Shown one piece after another: positions 3,291-5,892 of a DNA stretch of 64,000 nucleotides. Position numbers and translations under genes: made by a program. How positions within the stretch are numbered: position 1 is the stretch's first letter; the number at the start of each line of letters is the position of its first letter. Below the pieces are notes generated by a model. It was not told where the DNA came from and made no database searches. It saw only the letters and a list, made by a program, of their open reading frames with translations. The stretch spans positions 64,001 to 128,000 of the forward strand of contig CBDDBZ010000025.1 in assembly GCA_965225945.1 (NCBI GenBank), given 5' to 3'. This stretch comes from Alphaproteobacteria bacterium (GTDB lineage: Bacteria > Pseudomonadota > Alphaproteobacteria > GCA-2731375).

Positions 3291-4638
3291 CGTCTCGGCC
3301 AGCAGCCCTGATTTCGTAAGTTTACATTTTCGTAACTGCCCAGGTACATGGTGGCCTTTTAGGCGGCGTGGAGACGCTCGATCAGGGTTTCGGGATTTTC
3401 CATGAGCGCCTGGATGATGTTCCAGCCCTGTTTTCTGGCGGTCGAGATGAAGCCGCGGACGGTGGCAAAGTCTTCGGCGCCTTTCTGGCTGCGGAAGCCG
3501 CCGGAGATTTTCTGCTTGACCTTCATCATGCGCCCGTCCTGCTCGGCCTGATTGTTGGTGAACGGCACGGCGAAATTGATGAGGAAGCGCAGCGCGTCTT
3601 CCTTGTGTGTCTGAAGGCGCCGGAGAAGGTTGTGCCCGGTGCGGCGCGGCTTGCTTCCCCGGCGCTTGGCCTTGCTCGATCTGGGCGCAAGAGGAGGTTG
3701 TGCCTCGTGAAAGGCGATGCCCTCGGCCGTGATCGCGTCGTAACACCCTCGGAAGCGCTCGACGAGGCCTGGTTTCAGCGCCACGCCCCGCTCCCGGGCG
3801 AGATTTACCGCGTGGCAGGCGCGGCGCAATAGTCTCTGCATCTTGCGTGCCCAGCCCTCCTTCTCGATCTCGATCAGGGCTTGCAACTCGCGCAGGTGAT
3901 GGGCGTTGCACAGCGCGTGCCGTACGCCCTCCATCGTAAAGTACGGCTTCCAGTGGTCATGGACGACGATGCCGCCGACTCCGCCGAGCAGGCTGCCGCG
4001 TCGCTCCGAGACCCGATAGAAGGTCAACCGCGCGGTCGAGGCGACGTGCAACCATTGGGTCCGCCCGGCGATCCGCAAGCCGGTCTCGTCCATGTGCTTG
4101 ACCGGCGCCGATTTCACCAGTTCGCGGATCACATCGACGACGCCTTGGACGGACTCGGCGCTGTTCCCGCCCATCCGCGCGAGGCTCGCCGGAGACAGTT
4201 CCGCCCCGAACAGATCCTTCATCAATTCAGCCAGGCGGTCCTCGGGCAGGAGTTGGTAGTGCGACAGGTAGACCACCATGGCTCCGATCCGAGCGCCGTA
4301 TTGAACCGGGCCGGTGATGGCGACGGGAAAAGAAGCCCGAGTGTACGTGCCGCAATGCCCGCAACGGCAGCGATGCGCCCGATGCTCCGTGACCACCAGG
4401 GGCCGGGGCTCGGGTAGATCGAAAACCTGGCGGGCCCCATGGCCGGTAGCCATATCCGGCGTCAATCCCGAACCACACCACTGGTACGTCTCGGGATAAT
4501 GGTCGACGGTGGCGTCGGGATCGGCGACTTGGCGCAGGGTCTCGCCCTTGTGGCCCTTTTGCCCGCCCGGCTTGCGGGCCGATTTCTTACGGAGGCTCCT
4601 GGTGCGCTTCTTTTTACCCGCCGGTGGCTTGTTCAATC

Positions 4639-5393
4639 CATGCCTATCCGGTTATCACCCACACCCACTATATGTAGTGTGTCTCCTTGGACTGCAGGCA
4701 AGGGCCGGCGCAGGCGCATTGAGGAGGCGATCCGGCTAATTCTTGATTGTTCTGAAAACCGAACCGGAGTTTAATTCACGTCACGTACTTAACATCGGGG
4801 GACGGAACGGTGGCGACCAAGGGAAAAACGAAGAAACCCACGGCCAGACGGGAAGCTGCTGATGAAACGACATCGTCTGAGCGATTGACGGCACTAGTCG
4901 AAGAAAGCGACGCGCTGGCACGAATCGTTGCGAAGAACCCGTCCGCGCCTGTTAGTCTCCTGCGCGTTTTGAGTCGCAGCGAAGACGAAGCGACACGCAA
5001 GAACGTGATCCTCAATCCGTTTACTTCATATGACGTATTGAGCGAACTTGAAAACCAGTTCACAGAGCTATTTGTGAATAATCCGGCACTCGAATCCTAC
5101 AATTCAATGAAGCTCTGATTTCCTGGAATATTCCATCGGTGTCGTTCACCTCCGATTTCAGATAAATTTCAATGAAGTGACGGTCCTTTATGCAACGTGG
5201 CGTTTTGCCAAATCCGACTCAATGATTAGGATTTCCACCACGCTAAAGTGTCGCCTAAAAGGCGCTACAATGCCGTCCGAGTCCCTGCTCGGCATCGCCG
5301 GAGATATCTCCGCTTCGACCTGCACCGAGCTTTACTCAGGAAAATGGGTGCACACTACATATAGTGGGTGTGGGTGATAACCGGATAGGCAAG
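4639..5393. mobile_element. Non-autonomous mobile cassette (MITE/MIC-like) carrying a passenger gene
   Basis: 41-bp perfect inverted repeats at 4641-4681 and 5351-5391; duplicated target GTTCAATC(CAT) at 4631-4641 and 5394-5404; visibly AT-richer interior; no transposase. Confidence 0.88.
4810..5118 (+). CDS. Small leucine-rich-repeat-variant/HEAT-like helical repeat protein (cassette passenger)
   Basis: 102 aa with repeated VAKNPSAPVSLLRVL / VILNPFTSYDVLSEL / VNNPAL units; purine-rich RBS before GTG. Confidence 0.6.
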   Translation: MATKGKTKKPTARREAADETTSSERLTALVEESDALARIVAKNPSAPVSLLRVLSRSEDEATRKNVILNPFTSYDVLSELENQFTELFVNNPALESYNSMKL

Positions 5394-5892
5394 GTTCAAT
5401 CCATCGCTCGACGGTGGCTTGCCGCTGTTCGTGCTGTTCAGGCCAAGCCGGCGCTCGAGTTCACCAAGCCGGAGTTCGAACTCGGCGAGCCGCGACCCTT
5501 GGGCCAGCACCACATCGATCAGCTCGTCTTTCGACAAAAAGGCAAGAACATCCCTATCCATCGAATCCTTAGAATCGACCAACCACCCTATGTCAAACGA
5601 AATCTAGGCCGTCAGCGCCCCAAACCCACAAAATCTGCCCCCAGAGACCCAATCCGCAGCCTCATCGAAATCAGCTACCTGGGCAGTTACACATTTTCTT
5701 TAATATTTTGTGCTGCGCGGTCCCACGCATAGTGATATAGGGCGCGCGGGGAGGACGGCGGCCGCTCTTCAGATGGGTGCGCCGTCGAGGCGACACAAGG
5801 GTTGGGCAGGCCGTCCATCGGGCGGCGCCGTCGCCGGTCGGTGAAGCGAATATCGGAGGGGCCGCCTGGCGGCGTTGGCGTCGAGTTTTCCA

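Follow-up and report, generated by a model that had tools for sequence, protein, structure and literature searches.

Based on an analysis of 64,000 nucleotides (nt) of DNA from an Alphaproteobacteria bacterium (GenBank assembly GCA_965225945.1, contig CBDDBZ010000025.1, positions 64,001 to 128,000; this whole stretch is called the window here), we describe a 755-bp element at window positions 4639-5393. We hold with high confidence that it is a mobile insertion cassette (MIC) derived from an ISAcr1-like insertion sequence (IS) of the IS1595 family, in which an LRV_2 open reading frame (ORF) has replaced the transposase gene. This reading builds on the observed boundaries of the cassette, its target duplication and copy number, its partner IS and family, its target preference and its co-occurrence with that IS in other genomes. 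The genome of the window, G000, comprises 6.27 Mb in 39 contigs, and the window corresponds to C25:64001-128000.

Boundaries of the cassette and its insertion site

The initial annotation had described an AT-richer insert bounded by an exact 41-nt inverted repeat (IR), and both features were found again. The 41-nt arm has two exact sites in the window, 4641-4681 on the plus strand and 5351-5391 on the minus strand, with 0 mismatches and no match in 100 shuffles; in a repeat search the arms extended to 44 nt at 98%. The guanine-plus-cytosine (GC) content is 0.41-0.585 inside the insert, 0.61-0.67 in the flanking IS66 element and 0.65-0.75 further out. The element itself, with the ends CTTGCC...GGCAAG, is 2 nt longer on each side than the 41-nt arms, because nearly all copies in the genome have CT before the core and AG after it.

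The gene that the insert interrupts encodes an IS66-family transposase and runs on the minus strand. Its two parts, the ORFs 5355-5582(-) and 3359-4636(-), meet at ...SSDGLN / NKPP..., and in Pfam the pieces match DUF6444 and zf-IS66 plus DDE_Tnp_IS66 (E 7e-43), respectively. Removal of the insert restores the frame, as had been claimed: an uninterrupted IS66 copy of 1596 bp (C37:318589-320184) has a single 493-amino-acid (aa) frame that reads ...SSDGLNKPPAGKKK.... Empty sites were recognised in 24 IS66 copies, 18 of which have a complete left part and six a partial one, and their flanks overlap by exactly 8 bp. The target duplication is thus 8 bp, GTTCAATC (Table 1). It had been given as 8-11 bp; the duplication is real, and the ambiguity in its length is settled at 8 bp by the 24 empty sites and by 47 of 61 two-ended copies.

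Element position 2, with A for T, is the one place where the copy in the window departs from the 755-nt consensus. From this change comes the left end CATGCC, which had suggested IS231, and the same A, together with the CAT that follows the target site, produces an apparent 11-bp repeat. Of the termini in G000, 2 alone begin CATGCC, and the prevailing forms, with 73 and 61 identical termini, begin CTTGCC. Two cassettes at different loci, C36:113426 and window 4639, have the T>A change in the left repeat (position 2), and a cassette bearing it has probably transposed again. Across the wider cassette family the second position varies (CG, CT, CA).

Copy number, burst and choice of target

When the 753-bp cassette core was compared with G000 by blastn, 69 matches of at least 700 bp and 44 partial matches of 100-699 bp were obtained. 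The rounded identity of the 69 near-full copies was 100% for 52, 99% for nine and 98% for four, with one copy each at 97, 95, 84 and 82%. For 61 copies both ends were available, and the 8-bp duplication was perfect in 47, had one mismatch in four and had 2-7 mismatches in ten. Exactly 755 bp were found in 46 of the 61; 22 of these equal the consensus, 18 are 1 nt off, and the other six are 2, 3, 3, 5, 8 and 17 nt off. From the number of copies and their near-identity it is clear that a recent burst produced the ~70 cassettes. The 69 near-full copies with their clean duplications also bear out the proposal of a recently moved, transposase-less cassette with an unrelated ORF.

Cassette-type termini in G000 (150) enclose the LRV cassette only, as 45 pairs spaced 755 bp, 14 pairs spaced 738-787 bp and one pair spaced 448 bp; five further pairs, 1504-2353 bp apart, were read as cassettes with nested insertions. 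Discordant flanks were seen, for example, at C24:55786-56540 and C24:60415-61169 and at C32:60181, C33:252803 and C38:119472. Some flank words recur: GTCTGATC is common to two copies 4 kb apart, and GTTGAAGC stands left of three copies. These patterns suggest inversions, deletions or duplications by recombination between copies.

In the 47 clean duplications, position 1 is G in 35, position 3 is T in 33, position 4 is C in 23, position 5 is G or A in 37, position 6 is A in 25 and position 8 is C in 31. The target consensus is palindrome-like, G-W-T-C-G-A-W-C. Outside the target, A or T was found one base beyond on the left in 40/47 and two bases beyond on the right in 44/47, in a genome with 17% A and 17% T.

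Reads and the nested arrangement

The window stretch was present in 20 of 24 listed sequencing runs from 8 studies, some of them labelled sponge metagenome. Four runs were examined, all as contigs. All four contained a joined form that skips 4631-5393 (joint 4630>5394), which equals the uninterrupted IS66, and in a DNA run the cassette interior was a separate contig at about ten times the flank depth (604.6 versus 54-64).

That the nesting is an assembly artefact, created by collapsed or mis-joined repeats, is in our judgement very improbable. Both IS66 and the cassette are multi-copy, and no contig of the four short-read runs bridges either IS66/cassette junction, an outcome that is uninformative for repeats in short-read contigs. 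Against an artefact speak the exact 8-bp duplication that flanks the insertion, a sequence that is single at the empty site, the like nesting at three other IS66 copies (in C35, C30 and C37, at different or homologous positions), and the 61 copies that the assembly resolves, each with its own flanks.

The copy at C35:217498-219865 concerns an IS66 relative, 91% identical to that of the window, with a cassette at the homologous GTTCAATC and a cassette core equal to that of the window. This fits a second, independent insertion at a preferred site; the alternative to such independent targeting is conversion between the two copies. The IS load of G000 is extreme in general, with repeatedly nested ISs and about two dozen copies of the 1596-bp IS66-family element.

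The partner insertion sequence

G000 has ten full copies of a 1105-bp IS, 97-100% identical, with C35:51447-52553 as the type copy, and the last ~110 bp of the cassette match the ends of this IS at ~79%. The first 15 nt are identical at both ends of the partner IS and at both ends of the cassette. The left IR of the cassette agrees with the left end of the partner in 28 of 30 nt, and the right 126 bp agree with partner positions 984-1108 in 97 of 126 nt (77%), including the last transposase codons. The ORF 5177-5377 in this part of the window ends ...SLLGIAGDISASTCTELYSGKWVHTTYSGCG, next to ...SLLGIAGDTSAPTYAELYSGEWRHPTCSGHGR at the C terminus of the partner transposase. The 339-aa partner transposase matched Zn_ribbon_IS1595 (PF12760, 6.9e-14, residues 23-69) and DDE_Tnp_IS1595 (PF12762, 3.3e-37, residues 145-297) in Pfam and 'IS1595 family transposase' (NF033547, 1.2e-56) in NCBIfam. 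The IS1595 family is described by these domains and an 8-bp duplication in PMC8101967. The cassette has the 8-bp duplication and family-like terminal IRs; of a DDE_Tnp_IS1595 transposase it keeps only the last ~30 codons of such a frame, and it is therefore a derivative and not an IS.

An autonomous partner with the same ends, which the initial annotation had proposed to look for, is thus present in the same genome. The statement that the cassette has no transposase stands as far as an intact gene is concerned, but not for the last 126 bp, which correspond, with 77% identity, to the 3' end of an IS of the IS1595 family, the end of its transposase frame included.

Among annotated plasmids, 11 records match the cassette, 8 of them at the end of genes for an 'IS1595-like element ISAcr1 family transposase' (Acidiphilium, Acidithiobacillus), and none of the 11 matching records covers at least 80% of it. 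ISAcr1 in NC_009468.1 has the same CTTGCCTATCCGGTT termini as the cassette and an 8-bp duplication, ATATATTG; at the right end it agrees with the cassette IR in 41 of 46 nt, and between its transposase and the partner's the identity is 81.7%. The ends (nnnGCnTATC) and the length of 1.0-1.1 kb would agree with the ISSod11 subgroup of IS1595. The repeats do match a known IS family (ISAcr1-like), which had been named as one half of a possible refutation, but the interior is more than a deleted transposase, the other half.

The link to IS231 that the initial annotation drew did not hold. It would make the element a MIC of the IS231 group (IS4 family), moved by an IS4-type transposase that recognises CATGCC ends. 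The window copy does begin with CATGCC, and MICs were first described for IS231, according to PMC3129680 and PMC2266710. In Table 1 of PMC2266710, the IS231 subgroup of IS4 has ends beginning 5'-CAT and direct repeats of 10-12 bp. Here, the consensus of 61 copies has T at position 2 (CTTGCC), the duplication is 8 bp, and the IS that shares the termini encodes an IS1595-type transposase; an IS4-type cognate (DDE with YREK) was not found among ISs with these termini, and IS4-family transposases were not searched in G000. An IS231/IS4 origin was rejected on the consensus end, the duplication length and the family of the partner, and we give it virtually no credence.

Some further structures related to the partner IS were seen in G000. 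At six loci (C1:44067-45701, C14:57694-59328, C15:7570-9204, C27:160121-161699, C33:95821-97478 and C38:177697-179356) part of the right half of the partner IS (604-1109) is repeated in inverted orientation ~20 bp past the left end of the element, which gives structures of 1.6 kb with two right ends facing outward. At C19:59701-60823 and C34:188809-189932 the right-end sequence is present at both termini, and the transposase frame lacks its N terminus. A second terminus family in G000 (38 termini), CGTCCCTATC(C/T)GGTTAA..., has a core CCTATC-GGTTAA like that of the cassette, and presumably belongs to another IS1595-family IS of this genome.

The cargo ORF

The cargo ORF matches Pfam LRV_2 (PF25591) over residues 12-64 with an E value of 2.6e-8 and 34.1 bits, compared with a cut-off of 27. 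A search of 5.8 billion proteins gave 234 homologues at E<=0.001. Nearly all of the 120 homologues listed are ~102 aa long and 74-99% identical, most carry a precomputed PF25591 match, and most are encoded on contigs of 0.5-2 kb, as expected of a repeat. Longer or fused forms were limited to 12 single-member proteins, taken to be read-through calls at sites of insertion. With a profile built from 47 members, 5990 proteins were detected at E<=0.001, the best of which are 400-2200 aa long with 5-20 matching stretches; the cargo is therefore a single unit of a repeated module. Cyanobacterial relatives, 43-49% identical, correspond to the N-terminal module of long LRV proteins. At one cyanobacterial locus (L019, 4368-5294), two adjacent long LRV-type ORFs are followed by an ORF with a Walker-A-like GAPGIGKS, read by eye.

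The ORF is a real coding sequence under purifying selection between genomes. For five family members, synonymous divergence (dS) was 0.13-1.32 and the ratio of nonsynonymous to synonymous divergence (dN/dS) was 0.17-0.34 in all ten pairs. In a DNA alignment of 32 sequences the mean conservation at codon positions 1, 2 and 3 was 0.859, 0.925 and 0.807, and the start position is kept as ATG, GTG or TTG.

No similarity was found between the LRV_2 ORF and the partner transposase. NCBIfam and PADLOC gave no match for the ORF, PHROGs gave a single row at E 0.34, and a protein atlas returned LRV/LRV_2 clusters only. An AlphaFold2 model (pLDDT 71.4) predicts a basic disordered tail (residues 1-22) and six short helices. 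Foldseek gave 0 matches of this model to the PDB at E<=0.001, the best being VHS, HEAT or ARM-like repeats at E>=0.67, rows that suggest a generic alpha-solenoid likeness and nothing more. A complex prediction for the partner transposase and the LRV protein scored 0.01 and 0.02 against a mark of 0.32, which we counted neither for nor against binding.

The leader upstream of the ORF was aligned for 31 related elements and that of the window, and contains blocks of 0.84-0.89 conservation with GGGG..GACGGA ahead of the start. A promoter scan left the leader without any sigma-70 consensus call; its output was one predicted site at 5205-5232 and a single terminator-like site, numbers that shuffles also reach. 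Rfam gave no match in 4500-5500 at E<=1. The features of the cassette and its host element are collected in Table 1.

Table 1. Coordinates of the cassette, its parts and the interrupted IS66 element in the window.
Feature	Position	Strand	Basis
Host IS66 target duplication, left, ACATTTTC, 8 bp	3324-3331	.	
Host IS66-family IS, split by the cassette	3332-5690	-	15-nt perfect IR GTAACTGCCCAGGTA, 3332-3346 and 5676-5690
IS66 transposase gene, C-terminal part	3359-4638	-	ORF list, Pfam, intact copy
Cassette target duplication, left, GTTCAATC	4631-4638	.	8-bp overlap at empty sites of 24 IS66 copies
Non-autonomous IS1595-family cassette, 755 bp	4639-5393	+	Genome copies, consensus
Left terminal inverted repeat, 43 nt	4639-4681	+	28/30 nt as in the partner IS left end
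Leader with conserved blocks and a GGGGGA Shine-Dalgarno-like motif ahead of the start codon	4682-4809	+	Family alignment
Cargo ORF, 102 aa, GTG start, one LRV_2 unit after a basic disordered N-terminal tail	4810-5118	+	
Parental IS 3'-end remnant, last IS1595 transposase codons reaching into the right IR	5268-5393	+	
Right terminal inverted repeat, 43 nt	5351-5393	-	41/46 nt as in the ISAcr1 right end
Cassette target duplication, right, GTTCAATC	5394-5401	.	
IS66 transposase gene, N-terminal part (DUF6444 region)	5394-5582	-	ORF list, Pfam, intact copy
Host IS66 target duplication, right, ACATTTTC	5691-5698	.	

The cassette family in other genomes and metagenomes

The survey of the family covered 81 loci that code for an ORF relative; species genomes supplied 15 of them and metagenomes 66. 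In 49 of them the same terminal repeats stand on both sides at 512-578 bp, which is essentially IR, leader, ORF and IR. Three loci have the repeats 750-751 bp apart, like the window form, and another three have them 1024-1970 bp apart; one of the latter, L017, has ~1.4 kb between the halves of the ORF match. The remaining 26 are without one or both repeats, at a contig end or in a distant homologue. The ORF lies between the same repeats in 52/81 related loci, and a transposase gene was found inside the repeat pair in none of the 81, a C-terminal remnant being present only in the 750-bp forms. Thirty-one related elements were checked for the 8-bp duplication, which was perfect in 11, had one mismatch in one and was discordant in 19, for which chimeric joins in metagenomes may be the explanation.

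The cargo was suggested to be exchangeable, which is not what we found in those words: apart from the LRV-only cassettes of G000, the same ORF stands between the same repeats elsewhere. The same terminal family also bounds the partner IS itself and, in the genome G041, miniature transposable elements with inverted repeats (MITEs) of 264 bp that lack the ORF.

The ORF relatives are labelled Alphaproteobacteria, Rhodospirillales metagenome-assembled genome (MAG) and, in one case, Dehalococcoidia MAG, an assignment to be taken with caution as it rests on a binned contig of 8.7 kb. Forty relatives of G000 contained fragments only, in three of them, and among 400 evenly sampled other alphaproteobacterial species genomes a match at E<=1e-15 was found in two. 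In G218, a genome of a different family, 755-bp cassettes were found with 98.8-99.6% nt identity and perfect duplications in all four copies checked; the same genome has the partner transposase in at least 24 full copies, 99% identical in aa sequence. G041 and G042 contain 530-bp cassettes and also ISs with transposases that share 80-81% identity with the partner's. The MITEs of G041 are many, have the same termini and a transposase N-terminal remnant, and showed clean duplications in 3/3 checked; such termini number 145 in total in this genome. In another genome, G045, 354 such termini were counted; it also has a partner IS (98.9% identical in aa sequence), but of the LRV ORF only fragments.

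Proposed mobilisation of the cassette and possible role of the LRV protein

The partner transposase, with its zinc ribbon and DDE domain, would recognise the termini that the two elements share and would insert the cassette by an 8-bp staggered cut at a GWTCGAWC-like target; the window copy would have landed in the IS66 transposase gene during the recent burst. The partner transposase is the probable enzyme that moves the cassette, to judge by the clean target duplications, by the burst and by the joint presence of cassette and IS in G000, G218, G041 and G042. Mobilisation in trans, as had been proposed, is very probable given that G000 also contains a partner IS with these termini.

Several points weigh against this reading. 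The IS1595 DDE domain has 149 matches in G000, which fall into several types with open frames of ~296-359 aa, and a different resident transposase could therefore be the mobiliser. The resident IS is not the direct parent of the cassette: the shared 3' ends are 77% identical, and the IRs differ at 2/30 positions on the left and 8/41 on the right. The discordant flanks of 10/61 copies were read as recombination between copies. As the ORF-less MITEs with the same ends are numerous, the ORF is dispensable for mobilisation as such. In RNA libraries the cassette and flank depths were 50 versus 5.5 and 99.6 versus 9.5, and because this ratio is the same as in the DNA run, coverage provides no evidence of transcription. 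Finally, the near-identical G000 copies have 6 nonsynonymous versus 1 synonymous change, a small sample (46 exact-length copies), in which individual cassette ORFs show no constraint after insertion.

Could the element be an ordinary MITE that arose by internal deletion, with the 102-codon frame a leftover or chance ORF whose conservation reflects recent spread? The cassette does keep a transposase 3' remnant, the G000 copies are too alike to inform on constraint, transcription was not seen beyond a DNA-like depth ratio, and besides LRV_2 no function-bearing family matched the ORF (nothing significant in NCBIfam, PADLOC and PHROGs). We nevertheless regard this as improbable. The ORF is not derived from a transposase, since LRV_2 is above its curated cut-off and the profile finds 5990 LRV proteins; dS between family members reaches 0.5-1.3 while dN/dS stays at 0.17-0.34; the length of ~102 aa is kept in nearly all of the 120 homologues listed of 234; and the common 512-578-bp form holds little beyond the IRs, leader and ORF.

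A second alternative accepts the cassette as described and takes the ORF to be a passenger that benefits the host, for example as a helical-repeat protein for a host-associated lifestyle, kept by selection on the bacterium. Purifying selection between genomes agrees with this, as does the fact that MITEs without the ORF move well on the same ends; the runs with the window sequence include sponge metagenome labels, and the related long LRV proteins are ordinary chromosomal genes in cyanobacteria. On the other hand, ~70 copies is an odd dosage for a beneficial gene, the elements with the ORF come from different lineages in sources labelled soil, marine and sponge with no common niche evident, and the presence of the ORF in only 2/400 other sampled alphaproteobacterial genomes is a patchy, parasite-like distribution. 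We consider a host-beneficial passenger possible, if somewhat unlikely.

For the IS1595-derived cassette, our guess is that the ORF product aids the persistence or spread of the cassette lineage and is not needed for cutting and joining. More specifically, the LRV protein might be an element-encoded transposition factor that, as adaptor or modulator, acts on the IS1595 transposase, on the ends or on a host factor; we put this forward as a speculative and unlikely proposal. If it were true, the LRV factor would bias the borrowed enzyme towards the cassette or help it to establish after horizontal transfer, and the cassette would be a bacterial transposon that, though non-autonomous, supplies its own helper and parasitises the catalytic enzyme of another element. 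In the literature searched, no description of such a two-player arrangement was found for bacterial elements of the MITE or MIC type.

Relation to known systems

ISAcr1 and the cassette share the CTTGCCTATCCGGTT ends, the 8-bp duplication and, in 41 of 46 nt, the right end. With its own transposase gene, ISAcr1 (~1.1 kb) is autonomous, whereas the cassette is without such a gene and carries the LRV_2 ORF.

A MIC, as PMC3129680 and PMC3281130 give the concept, combines the ends of an IS, but no transposase, with an unrelated passenger ORF, and is mobilised by a cognate IS of the same genome. The cassette has IS-type inverted repeats without a transposase gene and a coding sequence dissimilar to the transposase. 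MIC231 of Bacillus cereus (IS231, IS4 family) has the same architecture as the cassette; it differs in family (IS4 versus IS1595) and in duplication (10-12 versus 8 bp), and the copy number of the cassette is far higher. The cargo of the IS231-MIC231 elements is reportedly modular and variable, whereas the cassette has a single conserved cargo.

IS1595-family elements with passenger genes are known as 'transporter IS' (Siguier, Gagnevin and Chandler 2009, in the summary given by PMC3129680). They share with the cassette the IS family and the presence between the IRs of extra genes unrelated to transposition; they keep the transposase, whereas the cassette has lost it. The 264-bp MITEs of G041 have the same termini, 8-bp duplications, high copy number and lack of a transposase as the cassette. 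They are internal deletions with the transposase N-terminal remnant and no ORF, whereas the cassette is three times longer and codes for a conserved protein. With 755 bp and a 102-aa ORF under purifying selection, the cassette is not miniature and non-coding as a MITE is. No account of this cassette was found in the literature searched, and an earlier description in ISfinder or in Siguier et al. 2009 is possible.

Significance

Most non-autonomous transposons of bacteria are MITEs that encode nothing; cassettes are rare, and their cargo is haphazard. In the family described here, a single small protein gene has stayed under purifying selection as the cassette spread through unrelated bacteria and reached ~70 copies by a burst in one genome. 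If the protein serves the element, this would add a new layer to the parasite-on-parasite interactions of mobile elements; if it serves the host, gene dosage would be set by transposition. The cassette and its partner IS break short-read assemblies and inactivate other ISs, and they mark recent horizontal transfer between bacterial families. For the IS1595 transposases, which are little studied, they also offer a defined target preference, palindromic and 8 bp long.

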